From: Candidatus Eiseniibacteriota bacterium
GTDB lineage: Bacteria > Eisenbacteria > RBG-16-71-46 > JABDJR01
Assembly (NCBI GenBank): GCA_963783375.1
Contig: CAWANH010000028.1
Coordinates: 544,001-608,000, forward strand
Direction: 5' to 3'
Length of the DNA stretch: 64,000 nucleotides
The stretch's first letter is position 1, and every line of letters starts with the position of its first letter. The notes below the pieces were generated by a model. That model did no database searches and had not been told where the DNA came from. It was given only the letters and a program-made list of their open reading frames with translations. Position numbers and translations under genes: made by a program. Of the stretch, positions 32,917-61,104 are shown piece after piece.

Positions 32917-32965
32917 TTGACACGGGCCTTCGGCCGGCGCATAGTTTGCACGGACACCGAACAAA
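32917..32965 (+). promoter_or_regulatory. sigma70 promoter with overlapping putative ROK operator (site 1)
   Basis: TTGACA(32917)-N17-CATAGT(32940), then TTTGCACGG-ACA-CCGAACAAA at 32945-32965. Confidence 0.8.
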
Positions 32966-34454: not shown

Positions 34455-35708
34455 ATGAAGAAACAGATCACCGGGAAGCAGGGCATCAGGCACGCCGCCG
34501 CTCAACGGCCGCGCCCGCTGGCCGATTCCATCCTGAGGCTCATCTGGCGCCAGCGCCGGATCTCCCGCGCCGAGATCGCCCGCCGCAAGCGCCTCTCCCG
34601 CTCCACCGTCTCGGAGATCGTGGGGACCCTGCTCCCCACCGGCCTCGTCGATGAGATAGGGGCCGGCCCCTCCGGAGGCGGACGGCCGCCCATCGTGCTC
34701 GAGTTCCAGGACGACGCCTGCGTCATCCTCGGGGTGGAGATGGGGGCGGCTCACGTGATGGCCGTCCTCACCGATCTTCGCGGGCGGGTGCTGGAGTGCA
34801 AGGAGCGACCCCATCCGGTTCGGAGCGACCCCGAGGGAACGCGGGCGCTCATCGTCGAGCTCTGCGATGCCTGCCTGAGCGCGCGGCCGGGCACGGCCGG
34901 CCGGCTGGTGGGAATCGGGATCGCGGCGCCGAGCCCGGTCGACCCCGGCCGTCCCGACCACCTCTCCGAGATCGTGCTCCCCGACTGGCATGGTGAGAGC
35001 GGATTCACCGAACTCCTGGCCCGGTACGGGGTTCCGATCCTGATGGACAACGACGCCAACCTGGGCGCCCTGGCCGAGGGCTGGTGGGGGGCGGGAAGCG
35101 GGGCGGACGACTTCGCCTACGTCAAGATCGCCACCGGCGTCGGCTCCGGCCACGTCATCGGGGGCCGGATCTACCGGGGGGCCACCGGGGTGGCCGGCGA
35201 GATCGGGCACATGGCCATCGATCCCCACGGCGGACCCTGCATCTGCGGCCTCCGGGGATGTCTGGCCACCCTGGTCGGCGCCCCCGCCCTGGTGGCGCGT
35301 GCCCGCTCGCTGCTCGCCGAATACCCGGAGAGCATGCTTGCCGGCACCGGGGTCACCCTCGACACCATCGTGGCCACGGCCCTCAGCGGCGATCCGCTGG
35401 CGCTCCGATTGGTGCAGGAAACCGCGGAGTACCTCGGGATCGCGGTGGCCGGCCTCCTCAACCTCATGAACCCGTCCATGGTGATCTTCGGGGGAGAAGT
35501 GGCGAGGCTGGGGGAGCTCCTCCTGGAGCCCCTCCGCGAGACCATCCGCCGGCGCACCCTGGTCAGCTCGGTCGCCGCCGCCGAGGTGCGCATGAGCGCG
35601 CTCGGCCAGCAGGCCATCGCCATCGGCGCCGCCACCCTGGTTCTCGATGCGGCGCTGGCCGACCCGGGCCTCTTCCCGACCGCGGTCCCCCGCCGGGAGG
35701 CCGGATGA
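34455..35708 (+). CDS. ROK family transcriptional repressor (XylR/NagC-like)
   Basis: ISRAEIA...LSRSTVSEIV HTH, GGRPP, DNDAN, GEIGHM, CICG.RGCL. Confidence 0.95.
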   Translation: MKKQITGKQGIRHAAAQRPRPLADSILRLIWRQRRISRAEIARRKRLSRSTVSEIVGTLLPTGLVDEIGAGPSGGGRPPIVLEFQDDACVILGVEMGAAHVMAVLTDLRGRVLECKERPHPVRSDPEGTRALIVELCDACLSARPGTAGRLVGIGIAAPSPVDPGRPDHLSEIVLPDWHGESGFTELLARYGVPILMDNDANLGALAEGWWGAGSGADDFAYVKIATGVGSGHVIGGRIYRGATGVAGEIGHMAIDPHGGPCICGLRGCLATLVGAPALVARARSLLAEYPESMLAGTGVTLDTIVATALSGDPLALRLVQETAEYLGIAVAGLLNLMNPSMVIFGGEVARLGELLLEPLRETIRRRTLVSSVAAAEVRMSALGQQAIAIGAATLVLDAALADPGLFPTAVPRREAG

Positions 35709-36532
35709 GACCCCGGTTCCTACCCCGGTACTTCCGCGTCGAGATGGTGGTGGTGCTCCTCGCCTTCGCCGCCGGAGGCGCGAGCTGTGGGGAGAAGTCC
35801 GGCGGGTGGACCCTGATGTGGGAGGATGAGTTCGACGGTCCCGCGGGCCAGCCCCCGGATTCCTCGGCCTGGCGATACGACGTGGGCACGGACTGGGGCA
35901 ACGACCAGCTCGAGTACGATACCGCCCGGCCCGAGAACGTGTCGCTCGACGGCGACGGGCACCTGGCCATCGTCGCCCGCAAGGAACCCTACAACGGCGC
36001 CGACTACACCTCCGGGCGCATCAACACCTCGGGGTTCTTCGCCCAGGCGGAAGGGCGATTCGAGGCCCGGATCCGCCTCCCGCGGGGCCGGGGGCTCTGG
36101 CCCGCCTTCTGGCTCCTGGGAAATGACATCGGGACCGTCGGCTGGCCGGAGTGCGGCGAGATCGACATCATGGAGTATCGCGGGCAGGAGCCGGCGATCG
36201 TCCACGGAAGTCTCCACGGCCCCGGCTACTCCGGCGGGAGCGCCCTGACCTCCCGTTACACCCTGAGCGGCGAGACCTTCGACGCCGATTTCCACGTGTT
36301 CACGATCCAGTGGGAGCGGGACCGCATCAGCTGGTACGTGGACGGCGTGATCTACAAGGTCGTGGTCCCCAAGAACGTGCCGTCCGGGGGAAGCTGGGTG
36401 TTCGACCACCCCTTCTTCATCATCCTGGATCTCGCGGTCGGGGGGAACTTCGTGGGCCCCCCCGACGCCACCACCGTCTTCCCCCAGACCATGCTGGTCG
36501 ACTGGGTCCGGGTCTACCGGAGCGAGTCATGA
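35705..36532 (+). CDS. GH16 endo-beta-1,3-glucanase (laminarinase), probable lipoprotein
   Basis: WEDEF, WGN.QLEY, YTSGRI, WPAFW, GEIDIME, DWVRVY. Confidence 0.93.
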   Translation: MRPRFLPRYFRVEMVVVLLAFAAGGASCGEKSGGWTLMWEDEFDGPAGQPPDSSAWRYDVGTDWGNDQLEYDTARPENVSLDGDGHLAIVARKEPYNGADYTSGRINTSGFFAQAEGRFEARIRLPRGRGLWPAFWLLGNDIGTVGWPECGEIDIMEYRGQEPAIVHGSLHGPGYSGGSALTSRYTLSGETFDADFHVFTIQWERDRISWYVDGVIYKVVVPKNVPSGGSWVFDHPFFIILDLAVGGNFVGPPDATTVFPQTMLVDWVRVYRSES

Positions 36533-38202
36533 GCCGGCGCGCGCGAATCCCCGGAGTCGCGCGCATGGCCGTCATCCTTTCGGCCCTGGCCCTGTCCGCG
36601 TGCGTTCGCGACGTTCCTCGGGCGCCGGAGGGCGTGCTCGTCGTTTCCCAGGAGCAGCAGGCCTCCTGGGTCCGGAACTTCAACCCCCTCACCACCGCCA
36701 CCGCCGCCCGCTGGCCCACCCTGGCCGGGATCTACGAGCCGCTCCTCGTCTTCGACAGCGTCCGATCCGAGTACGTCCCTTGGTTGGCGGTGAAGACCGC
36801 GTGGCGGGACGGCAACACGGTGCTCCGGGTGACCACCCGGAACGGGGTGCGGTGGTCGGACGGCCAACCCTTCACCGCAAGGGATGTGGCCTTCACCTTC
36901 GATCTCCTCCGGCGGTTCCCGGCCCTGGATCGCCGCGGGGTGTGGGGGTTCATGGACGCGGTCGACGCCCCGAACGACAGCACCGTGGACTTCCGCTTCC
37001 AGCGGGTGTTCATCCCGGGCTTCGACGAGATCGCCGCTCAGCAGATCGTCCCCGAGCACGCCTGGAAAGACGTGGCCGACCCGGTCTCCTTCGCCAATGA
37101 GAACCCGGTGGCTACCGGCCCCTTCACCGAGGTCCGCGTCTTCCGGAACCAGGTCTACGAGCTGGGACGGAACCCCCACTACTGGAAGCCCGGCCTACCG
37201 AAGGTCGAAGCCCTCCGATTCCCCGCCTATCCCTCCAACGACCGCGCCAACCTCGCGCTGGTTTTCGACGAGGTGGACTGGGCGGGAAACTTCATCCCGG
37301 CGGTGGATCGCGTGTTCGTCGGACGCGATCCCGCGAACCACCACTACTGGTTCCCCCTCACCGGGAGCACGATCTTCCTCTACGCCAACACCACCCGCCA
37401 CCCCTTCGACGACGCGCGGGTGCGGAAGGCGCTCAGCATGGCCATCGATCGCGATCTCCTGGTGGACGTGGCCCTCTACCGCTATTCCCGTCCCGCCGAC
37501 GCCACCGGCCTGAGCGACGCCTACGGCTCGTGGCGGGACTCCACCGCGGTGACCGAGGGCGATTGGGTCCACCACGATGTCGCCCGCGCCAACGCCCTGC
37601 TCGACGAGGCCGGCTACCCCCTGGGAGCCGACGGCATCCGGCGACTTCCCGACGGATCGCCGTGGCGATACGACGTCCTCACCGTATCGGGCTGGTCCGA
37701 TTGGGTGCGGGCGTCCCAGGTGATCGCCCGGGGGCTCGGCGACGTCGGGATCGAGGCCTCGGTCAAGACCTACGACTTCAGCGCCTGGTTCCAGCGGGTC
37801 CAGGAGGGAGACTTCGATCTCAGCCTGGGTTGGTCCTTCGAGGGCCCCACCCCCTACCAGTTCTATCGGTGGCTGATGTCGTCGGAGACGGTGAAGCCCC
37901 AGGGGGAGGCCTCGATGGGGAACTGGCACCGGTACGGGAGCGCCGCCGCGGACACCGCCCTGGCTGCGTTCGAGCGCGAGGCCGACCCGGCCGGCCAGCG
38001 CCGCCTGGGGGACAAGCTCCAGCGGATCTTCGTGGACCAGGCCCCGGCCATCCCCCTCTATCCGAACCCCTCCTGGGCGGAGTACAACACGAGCCGGTTC
38101 GAGGGTTTCCCGTCGGAGTCGAATCCCTACGCGGATCCCTCGCCCAACAAGTTCGACCGCGGGGAGACCCTCCTCGTGCTGACGACCCTCACCCCCAGAT
38201 AG
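36529..38202 (+). CDS. ABC transporter substrate-binding lipoprotein (family 5, probably oligosaccharide)
   Basis: Lipobox LSAC, RNFNP, IYEPL, WSDGQPFTARDV, ATGPF, VRKALSMAIDR. Confidence 0.9.
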   Translation: MSRRARIPGVARMAVILSALALSACVRDVPRAPEGVLVVSQEQQASWVRNFNPLTTATAARWPTLAGIYEPLLVFDSVRSEYVPWLAVKTAWRDGNTVLRVTTRNGVRWSDGQPFTARDVAFTFDLLRRFPALDRRGVWGFMDAVDAPNDSTVDFRFQRVFIPGFDEIAAQQIVPEHAWKDVADPVSFANENPVATGPFTEVRVFRNQVYELGRNPHYWKPGLPKVEALRFPAYPSNDRANLALVFDEVDWAGNFIPAVDRVFVGRDPANHHYWFPLTGSTIFLYANTTRHPFDDARVRKALSMAIDRDLLVDVALYRYSRPADATGLSDAYGSWRDSTAVTEGDWVHHDVARANALLDEAGYPLGADGIRRLPDGSPWRYDVLTVSGWSDWVRASQVIARGLGDVGIEASVKTYDFSAWFQRVQEGDFDLSLGWSFEGPTPYQFYRWLMSSETVKPQGEASMGNWHRYGSAAADTALAAFEREADPAGQRRLGDKLQRIFVDQAPAIPLYPNPSWAEYNTSRFEGFPSESNPYADPSPNKFDRGETLLVLTTLTPR

Positions 38203-38211
38203 GAGACGGGC

Positions 38212-39195
38212 ATGCGCTACATCCTGCGTCGACTCGGCTTCTATCTCCTGGCCGCCTGGGCCGCGGTGACCCTCAACTTCTTCCTGCCCCGGCTCATGCC
38301 CGGCGACCCGGCCACCGCGCTCTTCGCCCGGTTTCGGGGCCGCATGAGCCCGGAGGCCCTCGAGGCCCTCCGCCAGACCTTCGGACTCACCCGGGCCCCG
38401 CTCCTCGAGCAGTACGCCACCTACCTGGCCCACGTGTTCCGCGGCGACTTCGGCGTCTCGGTGGCGTACTTCCCTTCCCCGGTCTCCGACGTGATCGGGA
38501 CGGGGCTCGTCTGGACCCTCTTCCTGGCCGGGACCGCGGTGCTGATCAGCTTCTGCATCGGCACCCTGCTCGGGGTGGTGTCGGCCTGGTGGCGCCACGG
38601 CTGGCTCGACGCCTGGCTTCCCACCAGCCTGGCCTTCCTGGGCGCCTTCCCCTACTTCTGGCTGGCCATGGTGGCGCTCTATGTTCTCGGGTTCACCCTG
38701 GGCTGGTTTCCGCTGGGCCACGCCTACGGGGACGATCTCACCCCCGCCTTCTCCGCCGTCTTCATCGCCGATGTCGTCCGCCACGCCGCCCTCCCGGTGG
38801 CCACGGTGGTGCTGGCCACCCTTGCCGGGTGGCTCCTCTCCATGCGAAACACCATGATCGCGGTCCTGGGATCGGACTACGTGAACCTGGCCCGGGCCAA
38901 GGGGCTTCGGCCGGCGCGGGTGGTCCTCCGCTATTCGGCCCGGAACGCTCTCCTCCCCAGCGTGACCGGCTTCGGCATGGCCCTGGGATTCGTCCTGGGC
39001 GGTTCGCTCCTGACCGAGATCGTCTTCTCCTACCCCGGGGAGGGCTACCTCCTGGTCCAGGCGGTCCGGAACCAGGACTATCCGCTCATGCAGGGGATCT
39101 TCCTGTTCATCACCCTCGCCGTGCTCGGCGCGAACTGGCTGGTGGACCTCGTCTACCTCTGGCTCGACCCGCGCACCCGGGACTCGGCGTCATGA
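38212..39195 (+). CDS. ABC permease (OppB/DppB type)
   Basis: MPGDP, DYVNLARAKGL, EIVFSYPG, DPR. Confidence 0.93.
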   Translation: MRYILRRLGFYLLAAWAAVTLNFFLPRLMPGDPATALFARFRGRMSPEALEALRQTFGLTRAPLLEQYATYLAHVFRGDFGVSVAYFPSPVSDVIGTGLVWTLFLAGTAVLISFCIGTLLGVVSAWWRHGWLDAWLPTSLAFLGAFPYFWLAMVALYVLGFTLGWFPLGHAYGDDLTPAFSAVFIADVVRHAALPVATVVLATLAGWLLSMRNTMIAVLGSDYVNLARAKGLRPARVVLRYSARNALLPSVTGFGMALGFVLGGSLLTEIVFSYPGEGYLLVQAVRNQDYPLMQGIFLFITLAVLGANWLVDLVYLWLDPRTRDSAS

Positions 39196-40130
39196 GCGGG
39201 GCGGCTTCCTCCCGGGCCTCCGGCTTCGCGGTCTGGAGGGACGCGGTCCTCCGCGATCGCAAGGCCACCGTGGGGGCGGTCATCGTCGGCGTGTTCCTCC
39301 TGATCGGCGTGGTAGGGCCGTGGGTGGTCGGTGATCCCAACGCCCTGGTGGGCATCCCCCTCCAACCGCCTTCGGTCCAGCACTGGCTGGGAACCACCGG
39401 CCAGGGCCAGGACGTCCTGGCCCAGCTGGTGGTCGGGACCCGAACCTCCCTCGCCGTCGGGTTCGGGGTCGGTCTGACCGTGGTGCTGGTGGGGGCCCTG
39501 GTGGGGGTCACCGCCGGCTATCTCGGCGGTCGCGCCGACGGCCTCCTCTCCCTCCTCTTCAACGTCTTTCTGGTCATCCCCGGACTCCCCCTGGCCATCG
39601 TGATCGCGGCCTACCTGCCGTCCGGTCCGCTCACCCTGGGGTTCGTGCTGGTGGTCACGGGATGGGCCTGGAACGCCCGCGTGCTCCGCGCCCAGACTCT
39701 GGCCCAGAGACGGCGCGACTTCGTGGCCGCGGCGGTGGTGGCCGGGGAGACCAACTTCCGCATCGTCACCCGTGAGATCCTCCCCACCATGACCTCGCTC
39801 CTGGTGGCGCAGGTGATCGGCAGCACGGTCTACGCGATCGGAGCCCAGGTGGGGCTCGAGTTCCTGGGGCTGGGGGACGTCTCCGCCGTGACCTGGGGCA
39901 CCAACCTCTACTGGGCCCAGAACGACTCCGCGCTCCTCACCGGGGCGTGGTGGACCTTCGCTCCCACCGGCCTCGCGGTGGCCCTGGTGGGGTTCGGGCT
40001 GACCATGCTCAACTTCGGCTTCGACGAGATCACCAACCCCCGGCTCCAGATGGAACGGGCGTGGCGCGCCTACCTGGCGCGCCGCGGCCGGAAGCCCACC
40101 CGCTCGACTCCGGTGGTGGACCATGGCTGA
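39192..40130 (+). CDS. ABC permease (OppC/DppC type)
   Basis: HWLGTT..GQD, FLGLG, EAA-like loop, NPRL. Confidence 0.92.
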   Translation: MSGAASSRASGFAVWRDAVLRDRKATVGAVIVGVFLLIGVVGPWVVGDPNALVGIPLQPPSVQHWLGTTGQGQDVLAQLVVGTRTSLAVGFGVGLTVVLVGALVGVTAGYLGGRADGLLSLLFNVFLVIPGLPLAIVIAAYLPSGPLTLGFVLVVTGWAWNARVLRAQTLAQRRRDFVAAAVVAGETNFRIVTREILPTMTSLLVAQVIGSTVYAIGAQVGLEFLGLGDVSAVTWGTNLYWAQNDSALLTGAWWTFAPTGLAVALVGFGLTMLNFGFDEITNPRLQMERAWRAYLARRGRKPTRSTPVVDHG

Positions 40131-41082
40131 TCCGCTGCTTTCGATCCGGGACTTCTCCGTCGACTACATCACCGACGCCGGACCGGTGCGCGCGGTGGAC
40201 CGGGTGTCGCTGGAGGTGGGGCGCGGGGAGATCCTCGGGATCGCCGGGGAGTCGGGGAGCGGCAAGTCGACCCTGGCCCAGGCGCTGCTCCGCATCCTGC
40301 CCCCGCCTGCGGTCATCTCCGGCGGGGAGGTGCGGTTCGATGGGCGGGACGTCCTGACCCTCACCGAGAGCGAACTCAGGGAACTGCGCTGGAAACGGAT
40401 CTCCATGGTGTTCCAGAGCGCCATGGATTCCCTCAACCCCGTCATCACCGTGGGCGAGCAGATCGAGGACACCCTGTTCGCCCACGGGGTCACCTCACAC
40501 CGCGAGGCCCGGGACCGGGCGGAGACGCTCCTCGAGATGGTGGGGATTCCCGGCGACCGCCTAGGGTCCTACGCGCACCAGCTCTCGGGGGGTATGCGGC
40601 AGCGGGTGGGAATCGCCATCGCCCTGGCCCTCGAACCCGACCTGGTCATCCTGGACGAGCCGACCACCGCCCTCGACGTGATCGTGGAGCGGGAGATCCT
40701 CCAGCGGATCCGCACCCTGCAACGGGAGCTGGGCTTCGCGGTGCTCTTCATCACCCACGATCTGGGGCGCATGCTGCAGTTCTCGAACCGGGTGGCGGTC
40801 TTCTACGCCGCCCGGCTGGTGGAAACCGGCCCGGCCGCGGCGCTCACCCGGACTCCGCGGCATCCCTACACCCAGGGACTCCTCCGGGCGTTCCCCTCGG
40901 CGCACGGGGCGGCCCGGGAGCTGGCCAGCATCCCCGGCTCGCCTCCGAGCCTCCTGGACCCGCCTCCGGGCTGCCGGTTCCACCCCCGCTGTCCGTTGGC
41001 GGTGGACCGCTGCCGCGTCGAGGAGCCGGAGCTCCGGCCGCTCGGCGCGGACCAGTCCGCCGCCTGTCACCTGGCCGAATAG
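40123..41082 (+). CDS. ABC ATP-binding subunit (OppD type)
   Basis: GESGSGKS, LSGGMRQR, DEPT, HPYT, C.FHPRC. Confidence 0.95.
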   Translation: MADPLLSIRDFSVDYITDAGPVRAVDRVSLEVGRGEILGIAGESGSGKSTLAQALLRILPPPAVISGGEVRFDGRDVLTLTESELRELRWKRISMVFQSAMDSLNPVITVGEQIEDTLFAHGVTSHREARDRAETLLEMVGIPGDRLGSYAHQLSGGMRQRVGIAIALALEPDLVILDEPTTALDVIVEREILQRIRTLQRELGFAVLFITHDLGRMLQFSNRVAVFYAARLVETGPAAALTRTPRHPYTQGLLRAFPSAHGAARELASIPGSPPSLLDPPPGCRFHPRCPLAVDRCRVEEPELRPLGADQSAACHLAE

Positions 41083-41100: not shown

Positions 41101-44100
41101 CTACATGGCGAAGCGCAGGTAGGTGCGAACCTCCCACTCGTTTCCGTTCGGTCCCGGGGCGTTCGGCTCGCAGACCGAGGCCCCGGTGGCGTCGGGCACC
41201 ATGGCCGGGCAATAGCGGGGGGAATACCGATCGAGCGACCGCCAGGTGCCGCGCACCCCCAGGCTGGTCTGGGGAAAGCCGAACCAGCGCGCGGGGCCCA
41301 GGGTTCGGGACACGTCCCCCATCAACTGCACGGGATAGGTGAGGTTGAAATCGCGATGGTAGTCGTAGGGACCCCAGTCGTTGATCTTGAGCGCGGAGGC
41401 GAAGACCATGGACCCCAGGGCCAGGCGGGCGTCGCCGCCCCACCGGTGGATGAGCCGGGGGGAGTCGCCGTTCGGCTCGCCGGTGCCCCCGTAGACATGG
41501 GCCACCAGGCGCCGGTCGGCCGAAAGCCGGGACACCACGCGGAGGTGCGCTTCCCACATCTTCCGGAGCGGGGTGCCCGCGGGGAAGGCGAAGGTCGTGC
41601 GCCCGTCCTCGAAGATTCCGATGGCCGCGTCCTGGGTGGTCTTGAAGTCCCGGTAGACGAGATCCAGGCTGGCGGCCATGGGCGCATCCTCTCGGACGTC
41701 GTTGTCCCACTGCCACATCCAGGTGGCGGGGGTGGGATCGTAGGAGAGCATCAGCTCCGCCCCCACCATCTCCCGGTTGGCGCGAACCGCGAAGGGATCC
41801 TGGAGAATGTTCCGGGGCCGGCCCGGGGAAGGGACGCCGGCCGGGACCGGGCCCACCAGGGGCTTCTGCCAGAGGAAATTCGGGCCGATCTGGAAGTTCC
41901 CCTGGTTGACCGCCAGGCCGGTGATGAGGTTCGTCTGGTTCCCGGAGCCGGTGTCGGTGAGCATCCAGCCGGTGTAGTTCTGGACCGCGGTGGGCCCGCC
42001 GTCGGCCACCAGCCCCATGTAGGCGGCCTGCCCGTACCAGTGCCAGCGACCGCTCTCGTAGGTCAGCTTGCCCTTGGCCCCGAAGGTGTCGGAGTCGCGG
42101 ACGTGGTCCTGGAGCAGCCGGTACCCGTTCCCGGACCGCTCGGCGATCTGGAAACCCTGGCCAACCTTGGTGGCGCCGCCCCGGATACCGCCGACCTGGA
42201 GCCCCCACGGCCCGTGTCCGGCGGCCAGCGCCAGGGTGGTGCGCCGGGTCCGCGGGGTGGGAACGGCGAAGGAGCTGGTCACCGCGGACTGGCTGGCGAA
42301 CTCGTCCTCGAAGAGCCCGGTGGCGGTCACCGGCCCGAAGGCCCGGGTGTACTTCACGATCGCCGCCGGGTTCGCGCCCCACCAGAGCTGCGGTCCGTAG
42401 GCGAACTTCGCTCCGCTGAAGGTCTTCTTCCCGGTCAACTCGAAGCCCACCGGCGCCACGCCGTTGTAGATGTCGAGGTTGTCCCCGTAGAAGGCGTCCC
42501 GGTAGATACCGAAGAAATCCCCTTCGTACCCCCAGTGGGTGTGTCCGGTGCGATAGAAGCCGTCCAGGACGAACCAGCGGTCGTCCCAGCTCACCGAGGA
42601 ACGGTACACCTTCACCCGCTCGATCCCCTGGAGGTCGAAGCTCCCGTCGGGACCGTCCACCGTCCGGATCCGACCCCGGTTCTCGTAGAAGATCTCGTCG
42701 ATGGGGTTGGTGGGGACGTTTCCCAGAACGTTGAGAGACAGGTTCCCGGTCACCGTGGGCGCCGGGTGCGCCTCGAAGTCGGCGAAGAAGGACTCCTTGT
42801 GGTCGAAGCCCCGGAACGCCGGATAGCCGCCTCCGGGAACCGCGGTCTTGGGGGTGCTCACGTGGCTCCCCCCGGTGCTGTAGGTCTCGAACTCGAGGCG
42901 GAGTCCGCTCAGGCGGACCCGATCGGTGGCCTGGGCCAGGAGAGCGGCGCGGTCGCCGCGGGCCTCGAGCACCGCCGCCTCGGGTTGGATGGCCGCGAAG
43001 TGGCTGCGGATAGCCTGGAGGTCCGTCCCCGCCCCGTAGGGGGCCAGCCGGAAAGCGTCGCGGAGGGCATAGTAGGCGGCCCGGGGATAGAGCTCGAACA
43101 GCCCGCGGCTGTCCGGCGGCCCCTTGGCGCAGATCCCCCACCACTCCTCGTTCATGTTGTTGTCGCCGGGGACGAAGTCCTCGACGTATCCCCCGTTCGG
43201 CCACGAGGCGTTGGTGTCGTGGATGTCGAGCCGGCTGTCCTGGCCGAACTTCCACCACCCGTCGCTCCACTGGAAGATGAACCCGCCGATGGCGTTTCCC
43301 ACCCGGCCCTTGCCGTCGGACTGCTCGTAGATCTCCTCCCACTGGCCGAGGAGGTAGCGCGCCTGCATCCGCTGGTCCTCGCGCATCTCCTTCTGGTTGA
43401 AGGCGTCCGACCCGAACTCGGTGAACATGACCGGGATCCCCAGCTTGTCCTTGACCACCTGGAAGAGATCGCGGGCGGAGATCCCCCGGTAGACGTTGGT
43501 GCCCAGGACGTCGAGGTGCGGGCACTCCTGGGCGATGACGTCGATGTACTGGACGTCGCCGTTGGCGATGGCCACCGGGCGGTCCGGGTCCTCCGCCTTC
43601 ACCACGTCGATGATGTCGCCGAAGAGGGAGTAGAGCGCGTGGGCGCGGCCCAGGTTCGCCTCGCCCTCGGGGAAGGCCTCCGGTTCGAAGCTGGTCCAGG
43701 TGAGGCCGTAGTTGTTCTCATTCCCCAGGAGCCACATCAATACCCCGGGAACCCCGCGGAACTGCTCGACCAGGTTCGCCACGTCGGCGGTGATCGCGGT
43801 CCGGATCGCCGGATCGGCGTAGTTGACGTTCGGGATCCACACCCCGTTCAGGGTGTACCCGTAGCGGCCGCAGGGGTGGTTGATGACGGTGTAGATGCCG
43901 TAGCGCTCGTAGATGTAGCGGACCCAGCGGGGGGGAATCCCCACGTACTGCCGGATGGCGTTCACCCCCATGTTCTGGAGCAGCGGCATCTCCCGGGCCA
44001 GCGCCTCCTCGATCACGTCGTCGGGCTGCTGCCAGAGGCTGTAGAGATAGTTCTCGCCGATGGGGACGTAGTCCCAGTTCATCCCGTAGACCATGAAATC

Positions 44101-44274
44101 CCGCCCGCCCACCTGGAGCCGGGTACCCGCGTCGTCGGAGACCACGCGCACGGCGGACGGGGCGGCCGCGGCGGCCTCCTGCCCCCGGGCCGCCGGGGCG
44201 CCGAGAGCCAGGGCGGCGAGCACCGCCGCGAAGGCGAGGACGGGATGGAGGGGGACGGGGCGAATCGATCTCAC
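41101..44274 (-). CDS. clan GH-A (GH2-TIM/GH158-like) glycoside hydrolase fused to a predicted outer-membrane beta-barrel
   Basis: AAGGAGG RBS plus GTG overlapping the GH1 stop, signal peptide, MGVNAIR, LGNENNY (acid/base), MFTEFG (nucleophile). The last ~600 aa are amphipathic beta-strands ending WEVRTYLRFAM. Confidence 0.8.
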   Translation of the reverse strand: MRSIRPVPLHPVLAFAAVLAALALGAPAARGQEAAAAAPSAVRVVSDDAGTRLQVGGRDFMVYGMNWDYVPIGENYLYSLWQQPDDVIEEALAREMPLLQNMGVNAIRQYVGIPPRWVRYIYERYGIYTVINHPCGRYGYTLNGVWIPNVNYADPAIRTAITADVANLVEQFRGVPGVLMWLLGNENNYGLTWTSFEPEAFPEGEANLGRAHALYSLFGDIIDVVKAEDPDRPVAIANGDVQYIDVIAQECPHLDVLGTNVYRGISARDLFQVVKDKLGIPVMFTEFGSDAFNQKEMREDQRMQARYLLGQWEEIYEQSDGKGRVGNAIGGFIFQWSDGWWKFGQDSRLDIHDTNASWPNGGYVEDFVPGDNNMNEEWWGICAKGPPDSRGLFELYPRAAYYALRDAFRLAPYGAGTDLQAIRSHFAAIQPEAAVLEARGDRAALLAQATDRVRLSGLRLEFETYSTGGSHVSTPKTAVPGGGYPAFRGFDHKESFFADFEAHPAPTVTGNLSLNVLGNVPTNPIDEIFYENRGRIRTVDGPDGSFDLQGIERVKVYRSSVSWDDRWFVLDGFYRTGHTHWGYEGDFFGIYRDAFYGDNLDIYNGVAPVGFELTGKKTFSGAKFAYGPQLWWGANPAAIVKYTRAFGPVTATGLFEDEFASQSAVTSSFAVPTPRTRRTTLALAAGHGPWGLQVGGIRGGATKVGQGFQIAERSGNGYRLLQDHVRDSDTFGAKGKLTYESGRWHWYGQAAYMGLVADGGPTAVQNYTGWMLTDTGSGNQTNLITGLAVNQGNFQIGPNFLWQKPLVGPVPAGVPSPGRPRNILQDPFAVRANREMVGAELMLSYDPTPATWMWQWDNDVREDAPMAASLDLVYRDFKTTQDAAIGIFEDGRTTFAFPAGTPLRKMWEAHLRVVSRLSADRRLVAHVYGGTGEPNGDSPRLIHRWGGDARLALGSMVFASALKINDWGPYDYHRDFNLTYPVQLMGDVSRTLGPARWFGFPQTSLGVRGTWRSLDRYSPRYCPAMVPDATGASVCEPNAPGPNGNEWEVRTYLRFAM

Positions 44275-45668: not shown

Positions 45669-46694
45669 TCAGCTCCCCGGGGCGCGGACGCCCGGTGGGT
45701 ACAGATGGCAACGGACGAGTCGGCCGTCGAAGGGGCGCGGCCCGGGCTCTTCAGCGCGACAGAGGTCGTGAACTTCGGGACAACGGTGGGCGAAGGGACA
45801 GCCCCCGGAGCCGGCCGGCGCCTCGGGCCGCCGGGACGGATCCCGGGAGGGTACGGGGGCCACATCGTCCCGGCCCGCTCCGCTCACGTCGGCGATCGAG
45901 GCCAACAGGGCCCGGGTGTAGGGATGGGCGGGCGCGCTCACCACGGCCTCCCCCGGCCCATCCTCCACCACGCGGCCGCGGAAGAGAACCAGGATCCGGT
46001 CCGCCAGGTAGCGCGCGGAGGCGAGATCATGGGTGATCAGGAGGATGGCCAGACCGCGCTCGCGTTTCAGCTCGGCGAGGAGGTTCAGCACTCCCATCCG
46101 GATGGAGACGTCCAGCATCGAGGTCGGCTCGTCGGCCACCAGGAGGTCCGGTTCGACGGCCAGGGCGCGGGCGATGGCCACCCGCTGGCGCTGGCCCCCG
46201 GAAAGCTCGTAGGGGTGGCGGTCGATGAACTCCTCCGCCGGCCGGAGGCCGACGGTGTGCAGCAGTTCCATGGCCCGGGACCTGGCGTCGGCGCGGGTAG
46301 CCCGCCGGTGGCGAAGGAGCGGGCGCACCAGATGATGGGCGACGTCGTGAACCGAGTTCAGGGAGCCGAAGGGGTCCTGGAAGACCATCTGAACCCGGCC
46401 GCGATAGGCGAGGGAGGCGTGCCGGCGTTCGCGGGCCAGCACGTTGTCACCGTCCAGGAGGATCTCGCCGCCGTCCGGCGTCTCCAGACGCAACACGAGA
46501 CGGGCCACCGTGCTCTTCCCGCTCCCGGACTCCCCCACCAGGGCCACCGCCTCGCCCCGGCTGATCTGGAAGGCCACGTCCTCGGCCGCTACCACCCGGC
46601 GTTTCTTCCCAAATAGTCCACTGGAATCAAAGGACTTACAAAGGCCTCGGATCTCGAGAAGCGGTGCTTTGGGAACTCCCGTATGAGCGTCCAC
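45669..46694 (-). CDS. ABC ATP-binding subunit (OppF type)
   Basis: GESGSGKS, FQDP, LSGGQRQR, DEPTSMLD, HPYT. Confidence 0.95.
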   Translation of the reverse strand: MDAHTGVPKAPLLEIRGLCKSFDSSGLFGKKRRVVAAEDVAFQISRGEAVALVGESGSGKSTVARLVLRLETPDGGEILLDGDNVLARERRHASLAYRGRVQMVFQDPFGSLNSVHDVAHHLVRPLLRHRRATRADARSRAMELLHTVGLRPAEEFIDRHPYELSGGQRQRVAIARALAVEPDLLVADEPTSMLDVSIRMGVLNLLAELKRERGLAILLITHDLASARYLADRILVLFRGRVVEDGPGEAVVSAPAHPYTRALLASIADVSGAGRDDVAPVPSRDPSRRPEAPAGSGGCPFAHRCPEVHDLCRAEEPGPRPFDGRLVRCHLYPPGVRAPGS

Positions 46695-46721: not shown

Positions 46722-46768
46722 TTTGTTTGTCTACCGAACATAGTGTATCCTGATGGTGTGCTTGTCAA
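46722..46768 (-). promoter_or_regulatory. sigma70-type promoter with putative ROK operator (site 2) in a divergent intergenic region
   Basis: Minus-strand TTGACA at 46768-46763, with TACACT or CACTAT as -10 candidates. TTTGTTTGT-CTA-CCGAACATA at 46722-46742. Confidence 0.75.
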
Positions 46769-46965
46769 GGATCCGCCGTGTCCGGGGGACGATTTTCGAG
46801 ACTGGATGACCGGCCGAAACCGCCGCCCTACCGGCCCGAGGAATCGGACCCAGCTCCCGGCGGCGCTCCGGACTCCCGGCGTTCGACCGCAAGCACGATG
46901 AGCAGCGACGATTTCCGATCCTGCTACCCGCGACTGGCTCGTGCCCACATCAAGGGAGGCTCGTG

Positions 46966-47613
46966 ATGCTGATGAAGAGTTGGCTACCCCGTGTTGCATG
47001 CTCCGCCGTTCTCCTGCTCCTTCTCGCCGCGCCCGCGACGAACGCCTCGGCACAGAACGTTCTCGCGAACCCCGGGTTCGAGAGCGGACTCACCGGCTGG
47101 ACCCCGTTCGGCAACGCCTATGCCGAAGCCTCGAACCCTCCGCAGTTCGTGCCGCTCAGCGGCACCGGACTCGCTTCCATGTTCGGAAATTTCTCCGGCG
47201 GCTTCAACGTGACCGGAATCTTCCAGGAGTTCGCCTGCTCGCCGGGCGACCAGTGGCAGATCTCCTCGAACGCCCGCTTCTGGAGCGGTGACCCGATGAT
47301 CGGGAGCCAGGCCGCCGGCGGGAACTGGGTCGTCCAGAAGATGGCCTTCTTCGACGCCAGCAACGCCGAAATCGGCGGGGCCGAGTCGATCATTCTCGAC
47401 GGCAGCTACACGGCCGACGTCTGGCATCCGGCCGCTCCGGTGGTCGGCGTCGCCCCCGCGGGAACCGTCAAGGTACAGGCTCTGATCCTCTACCTCCAGC
47501 CGGCCTTCGACGGCGGCGCCGCTCATGTCGACGACGTGGAGTTCGTCAACGTGACCAGCGTTCCCGTCGAGGAGACCACCTGGGGACACGTCAAGTCGCT
47601 CTACGCCCAGTAG
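46966..47613 (+). CDS. secreted single CBM-like (galactose-binding fold) protein with C-terminal TWG motif
   Basis: Signal peptide, NVLANPGFESGLTGW...APAGT...VDDVEF, tail VPVEETTWGHVKSLYAQ. Confidence 0.8.
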   Translation: MLMKSWLPRVACSAVLLLLLAAPATNASAQNVLANPGFESGLTGWTPFGNAYAEASNPPQFVPLSGTGLASMFGNFSGGFNVTGIFQEFACSPGDQWQISSNARFWSGDPMIGSQAAGGNWVVQKMAFFDASNAEIGGAESIILDGSYTADVWHPAAPVVGVAPAGTVKVQALILYLQPAFDGGAAHVDDVEFVNVTSVPVEETTWGHVKSLYAQ

Positions 47614-47629
47614 AAGCTTCAACTAACGG

Positions 47630-47671
47630 CGGGCAGGGATGAGGCGCAAAGCGGGATCTCATCCCTGCCCG
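47630..47671 (+). other. intergenic 14-bp perfect stem-loop (mRNA stability or attenuation element)
   Basis: CGGGCAGGGATGAG...CTCATCCCTGCCCG with no U-tract immediately after. Confidence 0.65.
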
Positions 47672-47727
47672 GTCCTTTCGCAGCCGGGCGGCCGGTCGGC
47701 GGCCCGCCGCCCAAAAGGAGGGTCACC

Positions 47728-49146
47728 ATGAAACGCCCTCTCGCCGGAATCCTCTTCGTCCTGACTCTCTTCGCGGTATCGATCTTCCCCTCGACTTCGT
47801 CCGCGGCGACCAATCTCCTGGCCAACCCCGGCTTCGAGGACGGGGGCGGCTCCTACAACGGCTGGTTCACCTTCGGGGCCGGCGTGCAGCTCTCGCTCCC
47901 GGCCGGAGACAATATCATCCATACCGGAGCCGCCGCCTCGAAGGTCTACGGGGAGTTCACCGGGTGCCCCGGTTCGCCCCAGTTCGACGTCGGGGGGTTC
48001 GGGCAGGCCTTCACCCCCACCGCGGGACAGATTTACGAACTCAGCGGATACTCCTTCGTCTCCAGCGGCGATCCCATCCCCGGCACCGATACCTGCGTCC
48101 GGAACCGCATGATCGCCAAGATCGTCTTCTTCGATGCCGCGGTCGGCGGGGCCGAGCTGTCCTCGAACGAGATCATCATCGGCGACGGCAACACCGTGAC
48201 CGATCAGTGGCACGCCTTCTCGGTTTCGGCCCCGGCTCCGGCAGGAGCGCTCCGGGTGGAGGCTCTCTTCCTCTATCTCCAGCCCGCCTGCGACGGCGGG
48301 TCTGTCTTCGTGGACGACGCCTCGTTCACCGAGAGCGCGCCGGCCTCCGTGTCCAACCTCCTGGCCAACCCGAGCTTCACCTCCGGCCTCACCGGATGGT
48401 CCATCTTCGGCAACGTCTATCCCGACAGCCGCTCCTTCGCCGTACGGACCCCCACCGGCAGCGCCAAGATGTACTCGACCTTCACCCCCGACTCCCCCTC
48501 CGGCATGTTCCAGTCCTTCGCGGCGACTCCGGGATCGGCCTGGCAGCTGTCCGCCTACGCCCTGACCACGTGCGTGGAGGACGCGATCACCGGGAGCAAC
48601 GACAACTACGTGCTGGCGAGGATCGTCTTCCGCGACTCGGGCGGGATCGAGGTCGGCTCCACCGACACGGTGGTCCTGGACAACACCGCGCCCCTCGGCA
48701 CCTGGACGAAACACACGGTCATCGCGGTCAACGCCCCGGCGGGCACCGCCACGGTGGAGCCCTATCTCCTCTTCATCTCGCCGACGCTCATGGACAAGGC
48801 GGCCTGGGTGGACGACGTCTCCTTCCAGGAGCTGGATCCCACCGGCGTCGGAGACGACCCGCGGCCGCTCGCCTTCGAGCTGCACCAGAACGCGCCGAAC
48901 CCCTTCAGCCGGTCGACCCGGGTCGCGTTCGACCTCGAGGCGGCCGACGCGGTGAATCTGGAGGTCTACGACATCGCCGGCCGCCTGGTGACCACCCTGT
49001 TCGAAGGCCGACTCTCCGCCGGACCGCATGCGGTGGCGTGGGATGGGATGACCGCGAGCGGCGCCCGGGCCGCCGCCGGCATCTATCGGTACCGGCTCCG
49101 GACCTCGGCGGGCGAGGTTTCCCGGAACATGATCCTGATCCGGTGA
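47728..49146 (+). CDS. secreted tandem CBM-like protein with FlgD-Ig domain
   Basis: Two NLLANP(G/S)F...APAG...VDD domains, then QNAPNPF...YDIAGR...WDG. Confidence 0.82.
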   Translation: MKRPLAGILFVLTLFAVSIFPSTSSAATNLLANPGFEDGGGSYNGWFTFGAGVQLSLPAGDNIIHTGAAASKVYGEFTGCPGSPQFDVGGFGQAFTPTAGQIYELSGYSFVSSGDPIPGTDTCVRNRMIAKIVFFDAAVGGAELSSNEIIIGDGNTVTDQWHAFSVSAPAPAGALRVEALFLYLQPACDGGSVFVDDASFTESAPASVSNLLANPSFTSGLTGWSIFGNVYPDSRSFAVRTPTGSAKMYSTFTPDSPSGMFQSFAATPGSAWQLSAYALTTCVEDAITGSNDNYVLARIVFRDSGGIEVGSTDTVVLDNTAPLGTWTKHTVIAVNAPAGTATVEPYLLFISPTLMDKAAWVDDVSFQELDPTGVGDDPRPLAFELHQNAPNPFSRSTRVAFDLEAADAVNLEVYDIAGRLVTTLFEGRLSAGPHAVAWDGMTASGARAAAGIYRYRLRTSAGEVSRNMILIR

Positions 49147-49159: not shown

Positions 49160-50224
49160 GTGAACCGTCTTGCCCTGGTGCTTCTCGCCGCCGTCGGCCT
49201 GAGCTTGGCCGGACCGGCCGGCGGTCGGGAGCCCCTCGACGCCGCGGTTTCGAACCCGGACCCGACCTTCGACCGGGAAGCGCCGTTCACCAAACGGCCC
49301 TTCCCGGTCCAGTCCGACGCCGGCTGGATCGGAACCGGCATCGCCTACGGTCCGCACCGGGACGGCGAGTCGCCCGGAGGGGCGCAGCCCACGCGGGAAG
49401 AGCTGCGTGAGGACCTGCACCTTCTCGCCGCGCACTGGAAGCTAGTTCGCCTCTACGGCTCCACCGGCCCGGCCCGGACCATCCTCGAGGTGATCCGCGC
49501 GGACCGGCTCGACATGAAGGTGATGCTGGGGGTCTGGATCGATCCCGAGGCGCGCCGGGACACCACGGGCGCGGTGATCGAGGAGCTCCCCGAGGGCCCG
49601 GCGGCGAACCGCCGGGAGATCGAGTCGGGGGTGGCCCTGGCCTCGGAGTACCCGGACATCGTGATTGCCCTCTGCGTGGGAAACGAAACCCAGGTCTTCT
49701 GGTCGTCCCACCGGGTGGCCGCGGACCGCCTGATCGATGCCTTGCGCGAGGTACGGGCCCGGACCACGGTTCCGGTCACCACCTCCGACGACTACAACTT
49801 CTGGAACAAGCCGGAGAGCGGAGCGGTGGCCGGGGAGATCGACTTCATCACCGTGAACGGCCATCCGCTGTGGAACGGCGCCCAGATCGAGAACGCCCTG
49901 GGATGGACCCGGACGATCCTCGCCGGACTCCGGGCCGACCATCCCGGTGACGCCGTCATCCTGGGCGAGACGGGGTGGGCCACCGAACGGGACACGGTGG
50001 GAGAGCAGGCGACGCTCATGAAGGGCGAGGTCGGTGAGGACCAGCAGGCGATCTACTACCGGGCGGTGACCGCCTGGTCGGATTCGGCGCGGGTCCCGAC
50101 CTTCTTTTTCGAGGCCTTCGACGAGAACTGGAAGGGCGGCGATCGTCCGGCCGACGTCGAGAAGCACTGGGGGCTCTATCGGGCGGACCGGACCCCCAAG
50201 AAGGCGCTCGCCGCCGGGCGGTGA
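49160..50224 (+). CDS. GH17 beta-1,3-glucanase/glucosidase, secreted
   Basis: VRLYG, VGNE, GETGWA, FEAFDENWK, EKHWGLY. Confidence 0.88.
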   Translation: MNRLALVLLAAVGLSLAGPAGGREPLDAAVSNPDPTFDREAPFTKRPFPVQSDAGWIGTGIAYGPHRDGESPGGAQPTREELREDLHLLAAHWKLVRLYGSTGPARTILEVIRADRLDMKVMLGVWIDPEARRDTTGAVIEELPEGPAANRREIESGVALASEYPDIVIALCVGNETQVFWSSHRVAADRLIDALREVRARTTVPVTTSDDYNFWNKPESGAVAGEIDFITVNGHPLWNGAQIENALGWTRTILAGLRADHPGDAVILGETGWATERDTVGEQATLMKGEVGEDQQAIYYRAVTAWSDSARVPTFFFEAFDENWKGGDRPADVEKHWGLYRADRTPKKALAAGR

Positions 50225-50287: not shown

Positions 50288-53200
50288 ATGAGCACGAGAA
50301 TCGTCGAGGTTTCGGATCGGGCGGCCGCCGAATCGAGGGAATCGGTCGGGGAGGACTACGCCCGGATCGAGAGTCCCCACCGGATGCCCTCCTTCCTCAT
50401 GAGCATCCCCACCGACACCGACCTCTGGATGTTCATCACCTCCCGCGGGGGACTCACCGCCGGGCGGGTGGACGCGGACGGAAGCCTCTTCCCCTACGAG
50501 ACGGTGGACAAGCTCCACGACGGGCCGTATCACACCGGACCGATCACCCTGCTCCGGGTGCGGCGGGATGGCGAAGCCGAGGTCCTCTGGGAACCCTTGT
50601 CGACCGGGGGGACGGCGGGTTCCGGGTGGAGCGGACCCTCTACAAGAGCCCCATCGGGAACCGGATCGTGTTCGAGGAGCTGAACCTGGACCTGGGACTT
50701 CTCTTCCGGTACCGGTGGGCGGGCTGCAATGAGTTCGGCTGGGTGCGGACCGCGGTCCTGGAGAACCTCGGCGGGGAGCCGGTGTCCGTCTCCCTCCTGG
50801 ACGGCCTGCGAAACGTCCTCCCCTGGGGGGCGCCGCTCTCCCTCTACCAGCAGTCGAGTTCCCTGGTCGACGCCTACCGGCGGACCGACGGTGATCCGGA
50901 AACCGGGCTCGTCACATTCTCCCTCACCGCCAAGGTCACCGACCGCCCCGAGCCCGCCGAGGTCCTCCGGGCCAACGCCGTCTGGTGCACCGGGCTCCCG
51001 AATCCCGGGATCCACCTGTCCCTGGAGGCGGTGGAGGCGTTTCGCCGCGGAGACGCCATGGCCGTTGAGTCCGTCCTGACCGGACGCCGCGGAAACTACC
51101 TGGTCCACGCGTCGGTGGATCTCGGGCCGGGGGAACGCGCGCGCTGGCACCTGGCCGCCGACGTCGGCAAGAGTCACGTGGAACTCGCCGCCCTGCGCGA
51201 TCGGTTGCTCCGGAAAGGGAATCCGGGGGAGGCGATCGAGGTCGCGCTCCGGGCGGCCGACGAGAGCCTGGTGGGGATCGTGGCGGCGGCGGACGGCCTT
51301 CAGCTCACCGGCGACGGGGCGGCGACCATGCACCACTTCGCCAACGTGCTCTTCAACGTCATGCGCGGAGGAACCTTCCACCGGAACTACGCGGTTCCGA
51401 CCGCCGATTTCGGTGAGTTCCTCCGGGCGCGGAACCCGGCCGTGGCGGAGCGCCACCGGGGCCGGATCGAGTCGCTTCCCGGCGAGATCACGGCGCGTGA
51501 GCTGGTGCTGGCCGCCCGGGAGAGCGGGGACCCCTCCCTCGAACGGCTGGCCCACGAGTACCTTCCCCTCTGGTTCGGACGCCGCCATGGGGATCCGAGC
51601 CGCCCCTGGAACCGCTTCACCATCCACGTGAGGAATCCGGACGGGGGGCGGATCCTCCGCTACGAGGGCAACTGGCGGGACATCTTCCAGAACTGGGAGG
51701 CATTGAGCTTCAGCTACCCCGACTTCCTGCCGGGCATGGTGGCGAAGTTCGTCAACGCCTCCACGGTGGACGGCTTCAATCCGTACCGGGTCACCCGCGA
51801 CGGGATCGAGTGGGAGGTCGCCGATCCGGACGATCCCTGGAGCCACATCGGCTACTGGGGCGACCACCAGATCGTCTACCTCCTCAAGTTCCTGGAGGCC
51901 CTGCCCCGGTTCCTGCCCGGCGCGCTGGAGGGGCTTCTGGGGCGGGAGATCTTCTCCTACGCCGACGTCCCCTATCGCCTGAAGCCCTACCCGGCCATCG
52001 TGGAGAACCCGCGGACCACCATCGAGTACGACGACACGCTGGCCGCCCGGATCGAAGACCGGGTGCGCGCCACGGGGACGGACGGAAGGCTCGTCCCGGG
52101 TCCCGATGGAGCGGTCTATCACGTGTCGCTCCTGGAGAAGCTCCTCGTACCCGCCCTCTCCAAGCTCTCGAATCTCGTCGCGGACGGCGGGATCTGGATC
52201 AACACCCAGCGCCCGGAATGGAACGACGCCAACAACGCCCTGGTCGGAAACGGCGTATCCGTGGTCACCCTGGGATATCTCCGCCGCTACCTGGCGTTCC
52301 TGGAACGCACGCTCGGCGAGGCGGACGACGGGCCGGCACGGGTCTCCACCGAGGTGGCGACCTGGTTCCGGCGGGTGCACTCGGTCCTGAGCGATTCGCA
52401 GGCGATGCCCGGGTCCGGGCCGGTGAGCGACACGGACCGAAAACGCCTCCTGGACGCTCTGGGCTCGGCGTTCTCCGACTATCGCGAGGCGGTCTACGCC
52501 GGGGGGTTCTCGGGAAAGGTACCGCTCGACGCCGCGGACGTCGCCGGGTTCTGCCGGACGGCCCTTCGTCACGTCGATCACGCGGTCCGCGCGAATCGCC
52601 GCGAGGACGGGCTCTATCACGCGTACAACCTTCTCGAGGTTCATCCGGACCGGGCGGACGCGCCCCTCCGGCCGCTCTACGAGATGCTGGAGGGGCAGGT
52701 GGCCGCGCTCAGCTCGGGATTGGTGGATCCGGAGGAGGCGGTGGGGCTGATCGCCGCGTTGTTCGGGAGCCGCCTCTACCGGCCCGATCAGCGGAGCTTC
52801 CTCCTCTACCCGGAGCGTACCCTTCCCGCGTTCATGGACCGGAACGTGGTCCCGGAGAAGGGCGCGCGAGCGGTTCCGTTGCTCTCGGCGCTGCTCGATT
52901 CCGGCGAGACCTCGGTCCTCGAGCGCGACGCCGCGGGCGTGCTCCGCTTCCACGGCGACTTCGAGAACGCCCACGATCTCGCCGCCGCCCTGGACCGGCT
53001 GGCGGAAAGCCGGCCGGAGGCCGTGGCCAGCGACCGGCAGGCGACGCTCGATCTCTTCGAGTCGGTCTTCAACCACCGCGCCTTCACCGGCCGCTCCGGC
53101 GCCATGTACGGTTTCGAGGGCCTGGGGTGCGTCTACTGGCACATGGTGGCCAAGCTGCTCCTGGCGGTGCAGGAGATCGTCGTCCGCGCCCACCGGGAGC

Positions 53201-56396: not shown

Positions 56397-56400
56397 GGGG

Positions 56401-60866: not shown

Positions 60867-60890
60867 GGGAACCACTCCTTCCGATCGGGC

Positions 60891-60900
60891 GGGGGGGGGG
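60891..60900. repeat. G10/C10 homopolymer in the leader of the fibre gene
   Basis: Ten consecutive G at 60891-60900. Confidence 0.9.
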
Positions 60901-60927
60901 AACCGGCGGATCGCGCGGCGCCCCCGG

Positions 60928-61104
60928 CTATTTCTCCGGGGGCCTCGGTTCAACGAGCCAGCCGGCCAGTTCCTCGACGGACGTGAACCGGAATTCGGCC
61001 CCGCCGGGAAACCGGACCGCCTTGCCCCGGCACTCCCCGGGACGCCGGACGAGGACGAGCAGGATGCGTTCGGGTCTCGAGTGAGGCTTCTCGGGCTTGG
61101 TCAT
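60928..61104 (-). CDS. small hypothetical protein (58 aa)
   Basis: MTKPEK...RILLVLVRR...G....F.SVEELAGWL. AAGGA RBS. Lies between the regulator and the fibre gene. Confidence 0.6.
   Translation of the reverse strand: MTKPEKPHSRPERILLVLVRRPGECRGKAVRFPGGAEFRFTSVEELAGWLVEPRPPEK

Follow-up and report, generated by a model that had tools for sequence, protein, structure and literature searches.

A 64,000-nucleotide stretch of DNA from Candidatus Eiseniibacteriota bacterium (assembly GCA_963783375.1, contig CAWANH010000028.1, positions 544,001 to 608,000), hereafter called the window, carries on its reverse strand a gene (41101..44274, -) coding for 1057 predicted amino acids. According to its open reading frame (ORF), its sequence and an AlphaFold model, the product is a fusion of a clan GH-A glycoside hydrolase (GH), closest to families GH158 and GH157, to a predicted 24-stranded outer-membrane beta-barrel. 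As far as modelling can establish it, this joining of an undescribed barrel to a GH158/GH157-like enzyme is real and widespread. The barrel is probably a TonB-independent import channel selective for beta-1,3-glucan, with the enzyme docked at its periplasmic mouth.

The gene is the last of an operon ABC ATPase-GH1-fusion. Its start codon, GTG, overlaps the stop codon of the GH1 gene (GTGA) and has the sequence AAGGAGG just 5' of it. The protein begins with a Sec signal peptide-like segment (residues 1-31, 44182..44274, -), visible in the sequence alone, as the initial annotation had also read it. The segment is followed by a clan GH-A TIM barrel (residues about 40-415, 43030..44157, -) with the acid/base E186 (43717-43719, -) and the nucleophile E286 (43417-43419, -), a linker helix of 19 residues (residues 431-449, 42928..42984, -) and the predicted plug-less beta-barrel (residues 453-1056, 41107..42918, -), in which the conserved long parts are loops L5, L7, L13, L15 and L21 and turn T16. 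Pfam recognized in the whole protein PF02836 alone (residues 90-307), and no match to the C-terminal 610 residues was found in Pfam, NCBIfam or PDB sequences. As had been anticipated, Pfam and the public databases name such proteins GH2 or glycosidase.

The model of the whole protein, obtained with AlphaFold2 from a 147-row alignment, had a predicted local distance difference test score (pLDDT) of 92.5 and a predicted template modelling score (pTM) of 0.82, and the C-terminal domain modelled alone was a closed all-beta barrel (pLDDT 94.7, pTM 0.90). Predicted secondary structure, combined with a 462-row alignment, gave 24 membrane-type strands with alternating hydrophobic faces. On the side of the termini 9 of 11 turns consist of only 2-6 residues, and the loops on the opposite side have 7-36. 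Coupling analysis of the barrel (458 rows, effective number of sequences 261; the coupling analyses kept 458 and 341 rows after coverage filters) joined strands 1 and 24 through E461-R1054 (z 10.7) and also recovered pairs between neighbouring strands. The model, the strand pattern and the closing pair together uphold the earlier proposal of a beta-barrel of about 600 amino acids. Within the barrel, cysteines 1022 and 1035 of the last long loop (41104-41220, -) are the most strongly coupled pair (z 19.5) and likely form a disulfide, and a coupling between M771 of loop L13 and H910 of strand 18 (z 10.8) places this loop in the lumen. A plug domain is absent, neither PF00593 nor PF07715 was matched, and strand 1 follows directly after the helix, or after the signal peptide in barrels that stand alone. 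The terminal strand had been likened to those recognized by the beta-barrel assembly machinery; its alternation agrees with this, but the terminal aromatic residue is missing, the protein ending WEVRTYLRFAM, i.e. in F-A-M. Phenylalanine is the last residue in 4 of 80 ORFs of the clade of the window protein, compared with 72 of 73 in a distant set.

Every row listed in three fold searches was a membrane beta-barrel, either bacterial outer-membrane or mitochondrial. The check by AlphaFold and fold search that the initial annotation had proposed thus returned only membrane barrels, and not the soluble beta-sandwiches that were to speak against a transmembrane domain. The 18-stranded Occ, AlgE and MOMP proteins matched the first 470 residues with Z scores of 15-17; the quality of the fold matches overall was a root mean square deviation (rmsd) of 4-9 Å with at most 11 % identity. 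Among 48,161 representatives the best match had a Z score of 16.7 and an rmsd of 7.0 Å, so none was close, which is no proof of a new fold. A barrel profile of 150 rows had no match among PDB sequences at E <= 5, and no Pfam family was above its cut-off in five stand-alone barrels. In the ESM Atlas unnamed clusters came first, followed by DUF6029 (0.93) and the treponemal Msp (0.95), which are leads only. No other barrel family was found among the 26 ORFs scanned between 22 and 64 kilobases of the window, in line with the earlier claim that this is the sole outer-membrane barrel candidate of the locus. Within the reach of prediction and coevolution the barrel is thus real, and it matches no described family.

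In the enzyme domain, N185-E186 is conserved in 273 of 276 full-length, non-redundant homologues and T-E286-FG likewise in 273, and the reading of a TIM barrel with intact NE and TEFG glutamates stands. The domain has the features of clan GH-A, a (beta/alpha)8 barrel with a glutamate after strand 4 and another after strand 7. Family profile searches matched GH158 best (E 3.8e-10 and 5.6e-9; 12-20 % identity to GH158/GH157), with GH2 at 7.5e-5, and the enzyme fold search was headed by LaGH157 (Z 29.5) and GH158 (Z 27.7). A PDB sequence search with the single protein gave weak GH matches and nothing else. The endo-beta-1,3-glucanases of GH158 (BuGH158, 6PAL and 9ORO) and GH157 (LaGH157, 9FZ9) share with the fusion enzyme the clan-A fold and both glutamates, whereas the fusion enzyme, at its low identity to them, has an attached membrane barrel and a 60-residue loop after strand 8 that couples to it. 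The domain is therefore best described as closest to the GH158/GH157 hydrolases, and the genomic context would make it a beta-1,3-glucanase. Assignment to GH2 proper was considered and rejected: the PF02836 match is partial (30.5 bits), the flanking PF02837 and PF00703 are missing, and the NCBIfam beta-galactosidases were far under their cut-off. One homologue of 1351 amino acids (P0125) has an additional partial GH-A-like segment preceding the usual domain.

With the C-terminal region as query, the family comprises at least 5,028 sequence clusters (7,998 candidates scored), and 455 representatives were obtained at 50 % clustering. Named matches are from Krumholzibacteria, Eisenbacteria, Gemmatimonadota, Ignavibacteria, Bacteroidota and Gammaproteobacteria, including cultured Flavobacterium species (F. 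agri, F. caeni, F. silvaticum and others). A search of 41 genomes found the family in 20, counting the one studied here, and in all seven others of the same taxonomic family. Both domains lie in one ORF in 76 of 80 related GTDB loci. The four exceptions are found at contig ends (two) or at a frameshift or N gap (two); the latter, loci L032 and L080, were considered as real two-gene forms and rejected, being explained by a frameshift within a run of T and by an N gap. Neighbours recurring across these 80 loci are a lipoprotein (in at least 70), GH16 (62), GH17 (36) and GH149 (34), and the lipoprotein is directly downstream of the fusion in 49. Genes for GH3, GH30 and MFS proteins also recur.

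Barrels without an enzyme also occur. Five representatives of 564-597 amino acids have their own signal peptide-like start, which runs straight into strand 1, the linker helix being missing; named members of these clusters are marine Pseudomonadales and Oceanospirillaceae. Among 80 metagenome loci 21 were stand-alone, several of them near-copies, 54 fused and five unclear. No GH-A homologue was found in any of the 21 stand-alone loci within the DNA fetched; ten have a homologue of the family-5 binding protein, 11 have GH16, and only three have a match to the lipoprotein. In trees built from 107 of 150 rows and from 53 rows, with midpoint rooting, the stand-alone barrels group in a single clade (support 99) that lies within the fused forms. 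Their identity to the window barrel is 24-29 %, and 64 of 88 conserved positions are retained, including W, Y, D, E and R of loops L5, L7, L15 and L21 and of turn T16. Such conservation in enzyme-less barrels is expected of a channel and not of an anchor that has lost its passenger. The motif A-R-G-x(0-1)-D occurs in the linker helix of near homologues (window 42928-42984, -) and also where stand-alone barrels are predicted to have their signal peptide cleaved (loci L081-L104); it may mark the point of enzyme loss, or be due to chance.

The side of the membrane on which the enzyme sits is indicated by coevolution. Between the domains the top coupling (z 14.9; eighth among all pairs) connects D371 of the enzyme to R566 of turn T4. 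D371 is in the long loop after TIM strand 8, which by clan-A geometry is on the catalytic face. In 276 sequences, positions 371 and 566 carry opposite charges in 136 (acid-base 108, base-acid 28) and like charges in 13, and in 37 phylogenetically independent pairs an acidic residue at 371 went with a basic one at 566 17.6 times, against 1.7 (median p 0.0004). Position 566 was the strongest of 57 barrel positions tested, followed by 645 (T8) and 617 (T6), which are in neighbouring short turns of the same side; this ranking was read from the first pairings printed. The linker helix, a variable segment, is coupled with the enzyme through Y402-D441. Taken together, these sequence comparisons are good but indirect evidence that the enzyme docks on the periplasmic side, under the pore.

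A probable member of the family has been observed at the protein level. FORMB_24670, labelled 'GH2' and of 117 kDa, heads polysaccharide utilization locus (PUL) 2 of Formosa B and is followed by a 49-kDa protein, GH16, a PKD protein, GH149, GH17, GH30 and a GH17-MFS protein (PMC6246565), an order similar to that in Bacteroidota loci of the fusion family. It made up 1.19 % of the membrane fraction on laminarin compared with 0.006 % on glucose, a 196-fold difference, exceeding the TonB receptor of PUL1 (0.46 %), and its location is listed there as unknown (PMC6246565). In a 2026 paper the gene at the corresponding locus position is called a GH2 beta-glycosidase (PMC13188888); from gene order we infer that it belongs to the fusion family. 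SusC/D expression serves to read the glycan diet of marine bacteria (PMC6298971). The barrel is not described in the available parts of PMC6298971, PMC11345257, PMC12175321, PMC13749626 and 10.1101/2023.09.07.556657, nor was a description of barrel or fusion found elsewhere in the literature covered, most subscription journals and figures being outside this coverage.

The initial annotation had left two readings side by side, a glucan-selective channel with a tethered enzyme and a non-classical autotransporter-like anchor. Of these the channel is favoured, with the enzyme at the periplasmic mouth and uptake independent of TonB, since the stand-alone barrels are conserved and often found beside the same oligosaccharide ABC importer, the enzyme coevolves with a short turn that is predicted to face the periplasm, and the fusion is linked by a common operator to GH16, GH1 and the ABC importer, while the genome lacks a SusD match (PF07980, no matches in a genome 97 % complete). 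The TonB-receptor Pfam matches of this genome, two barrel and three plug, are all far from the locus. TonB-receptor-type genes were found in 5 of 160 loci (L013, L014, L044, L059 and L063), in a screen of unassigned ORFs of at least 550 amino acids passing a composition filter, with at least one representative for each of 70 clusters. That the barrel replaces SusC, as had been suggested, is compatible with this genome, but Formosa B also carries SusC/D laminarin loci (PMC6246565), so that 'in parallel with' SusC may be equally true.

Several points weigh against this interpretation. Formosa B has SusC/D laminarin loci as well, and FORMB_24670 was also present at 0.67 % in the supernatant fraction (PMC6246565); it is a probable orthologue of the fusion by size, label and gene order only, and no named Formosa sequence was among the best 120 homologues. 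The couplings are noisy, implausible inter-domain pairs reaching z 10.0 (V224-L514) and 8.7. The D371-R566 pair was selected from the data later used to test it, and a stricter charge-swap test was not significant (4.8 compared with 1.6 of 15 pairs, median p 0.45). In the fold searches the export porin AlgE (Z 17.3) ties with the import porin OccK1 (Z 17.2), and the folds of GH2 and GH5 are within 1 Z of GH158, so the linkage specificity of the enzyme is suggested mainly by context. The nesting of the stand-alone barrels was obtained with midpoint rooting. Many loci are cut short, which makes the neighbour counts lower bounds.

The alternative that survives best, though an unlikely one, is that the barrel acts as a receptor for glucan, binding or gated, with loops filling its lumen; passage would then need a partner, such as the lipoprotein or an energy-coupling protein, or the barrel would only hold glucan at the surface. 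Such a holding function has been proposed for Wzi, which is among the fold matches of the barrel (Z 14.1). The many long, highly conserved loops would suit a receptor, a pore of 24 strands with nothing inside it would be very wide, and a candidate partner, the lipoprotein, directly follows the fusion in the 49 loci mentioned. The predicted complex of barrel and lipoprotein (first 275 mature residues) scored 0.43, and one control 0.38. But the stand-alone forms have neither plug domain nor N-terminal extension and seldom have the lipoprotein in their loci (3 of 21), and an enzyme on the inner side is sensible only if substrate gets there.

Export of a beta-1,3-glucan made by the cell, as by AlgE, BcsC and PgaA with their periplasmic hydrolases, is improbable. 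The tied fold score of AlgE would agree with it. GH149 phosphorylases are reversible, which would also agree. A further point in its favour is that some GH17 enzymes of these loci are transglycosylases (PMC13188888). However, a Pfam scan of long ORFs from the window and the 160 loci matched no glycosyltransferase, and the genes around the fusion code for importers and exo-glucosidases (ABC with binding protein, MFS, GH1, GH3, GH30). The probable Formosa orthologue, moreover, is induced by laminarin and not by glucose (PMC6246565).

Equally improbable is an autotransporter-like anchor that displays the glucanase at the surface with the linker helix in the pore. A 19-residue helix immediately before strand 1 is autotransporter-like, three couplings of the helix to outer loops were seen at noise level (z 5.6-6.3), and the supernatant share of the Formosa protein (PMC6246565) could be read in this way. 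Against it, barrels without a passenger persist with their loop motifs kept, the variable helix is coupled to the GH domain, and the latter couples to turn T4. Classical (type Va) autotransporters, furthermore, have 12 strands and PF03797, whereas this barrel has 24 and no PF03797 or other autotransporter Pfam match. That the C-terminal part is a string of soluble beta-sandwiches as in ordinary GH2 enzymes, as the GH2 and glycosidase names would have it, can be dismissed, being contradicted by the AlphaFold model, the fold searches, the strand pattern and the couplings.

As a channel, the barrel would most resemble the LamB-MalEFGK and Vibrio chitoporin systems, which likewise combine a plug-less barrel with long conserved loops and a co-regulated ABC importer. 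LamB, ScrY, ChiP and CymA are among its fold matches (Z 10-14). LamB has 18 strands. Vibrio ChiP has 16 (PMC13578368). The window barrel, in contrast, has 24, no sequence or Pfam match to these porins or to Occ, and an enzyme in the same chain, and the fold likeness to LamB, ChiP and Occ covers its first 18 strands only. In SusC/SusD laminarin PULs a large barrel likewise heads the glucan locus and is followed by a lipoprotein and GH16, but the window barrel is plug-less, without PF00593 or PF07715, and has 24 instead of 22 strands; the lipoprotein of the fusion loci is unrelated to SusD by Pfam, and the genome has no SusD match. The ushers PapC and FimD are also 24-stranded and aligned along the whole length of the barrel (about 360 residues, Z 12-14), at an rmsd of 5-7 Å and 7-11 % identity. 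Unlike them, the barrel has no in-barrel plug domain (its longest loop being 36 residues) and no usher Pfam domains, and no chaperone or pilin Pfam matches were found in the window. A hydrolase and a transporter are joined in one chain also in FbGH17B-MFS (FORMB_24740) of the same type of laminarin locus (PMC6246565), where the MFS carrier is in the inner membrane and not, as in the fusion, in the outer membrane. IsItABarrelDB contains an uncharacterised group, 'Hypothetical Type 1', reported as 24-stranded and with no function named (10.64898/2026.03.07.710327); the range of the database, 120-1040 residues (PMC10629564), leaves out most full-length fusion members. By the tests run, the system is likely similar to a sugar porin with its ABC importer, and lies outside the LamB, ChiP, SusC, usher and autotransporter families.

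In its operon the fusion gene is preceded by genes for a GH1 beta-glucosidase (TIGR03356; 44271..45662, -; Pfam, NCBIfam) and, as the first gene, an ABC ATPase subunit (45669..46694, -; Pfam). A convergent operon on the forward strand codes for a conserved lipoprotein of 455 amino acids (33043..34410, +), a ROK-family repressor (34455..35708, +), a GH16 glucanase with a lipoprotein-like signal (35705..36532, +) and a family-5 solute-binding protein, two permeases and an ABC ATPase (36529..41082, +). The lipoprotein, with no match in Pfam or among PDB sequences, is a probable surface glycan-binding protein. The best PDB relatives of the family-5 protein are oligosaccharide binders, the closest being the Vibrio chitin-oligosaccharide binding protein (7.6e-85). 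The two ABC ATPase subunits (40123-41082, +; 45669-46694, -) are thus split between convergent operons, each behind an operator-like site, an arrangement that recurs in loci L001, L003 and L035.

Further genes follow on the other side of the fusion operon. These code for two secreted proteins without a catalytic Pfam match (46963..49146, +), the second with a FlgD-Ig tail resembling those of the type IX secretion system (T9SS), a GH17 family protein (49160..50224, +), a GH149 beta-1,3-glucan phosphorylase in two frames (50288..53745, +) and a secreted protein with a FlgD-Ig tail (53752..55359, -; Pfam). The frame shift in the GH149 gene, near 50605-50625, is either a sequencing error or a real break. 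An ORF of 1792 amino acids (55575-60953, -) has glycine-rich repeats, weak fibre or adhesin matches and a FlgD-Ig tail before its end, and may represent two joined genes. FlgD-Ig/T9SS-like sorting tails end three proteins of the window (47728-49146, +; 53752-55359, -; 55575-60953, -).

In other loci, a separate clan-A enzyme of about 600 amino acids with GNE and TEFGP motifs, similar to GH158, is found near the fusion in 23 of the 80 metagenome loci (within L115-L159, e.g. L125:12670-14496), and a DUF5916 protein of about 800 amino acids is upstream of the fusion in seven Gemmatimonadota loci (L014, L015, L019-L022 and L025). An MFS transporter and a GH3 domain share one frame of about 1120 amino acids in four loci (L012:12414-15800, assigned with Pfam; L004, L006 and L026, by cluster and length), possibly a second fusion of a transporter with a carbohydrate-active enzyme in such loci.

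Palindromic operator-like sites precede three transcription units of the window. One is 5' of the ATPase-GH1-fusion operon (46722..46742, three mismatches to the consensus), another (32945..32965, two mismatches) lies where the lipoprotein-ROK-GH16-ABC operon has the -10 box of a sigma-70-like promoter, and a third, with four mismatches, is at 55399, preceding the secreted FlgD-Ig protein. The fusion, GH16, GH1 and the ABC importer thus appear to be under a common operator. The symmetric consensus was derived from two window sites and then tested on other loci: of 18 ROK-containing loci, 17 have a site with at most three mismatches, in many cases immediately 5' of the fusion gene, compared with 0.05 per shuffle. 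The 4.73-Mb genome has only two such sites, both at this locus. The palindrome presumably resembles XylR/NagC-type operators, and on sequence grounds the ROK repressor probably binds it.

In the uptake route that these genes suggest, secreted and lipoprotein glucanases (GH16 and the FlgD-tailed proteins) would cut a laminarin-type glucan outside the cell, while the lipoprotein would hold glucan near the surface. Fragments are predicted to cross the barrel by diffusion, along loops that fold inward and carry many conserved W/Y/F, D/E and R residues. The tethered GH158/GH157-like domain, placed by coevolution under turns T4-T8, would cut the emerging chains and so keep the gradient directed inward. 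By homology, the family-5 binding protein and ABC transporter would carry short oligomers to the cytoplasm, where GH149 and GH1 would finish them, and the palindromic site before three transcription units is probably bound by the ROK protein. A bolder version, in which the 24-stranded channel uses its own periplasmic glucanase to ratchet long beta-1,3-glucans inward without TonB and so represents a new class of importer, is put forward only tentatively.

Current models of laminarin turnover assume TonB uptake of the SusC/D type. If the barrel is a channel, it would fill the missing outer-membrane step of glucan loci without SusC/D and add a barrel family whose number of strands has been seen mainly in ushers. 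It would also offer a direct test of whether hydrolysis at a pore can drive polymer uptake, with the natural enzyme-less barrels as a ready control. Should the ratchet prove true, a second route of laminarin uptake, spread over Bacteroidota, Gemmatimonadota, candidate lineages of the Fibrobacteres-Chlorobi-Bacteroidetes group and Proteobacteria, would have gone unnoticed at the start of the best-studied marine laminarin locus under the name 'GH2'.

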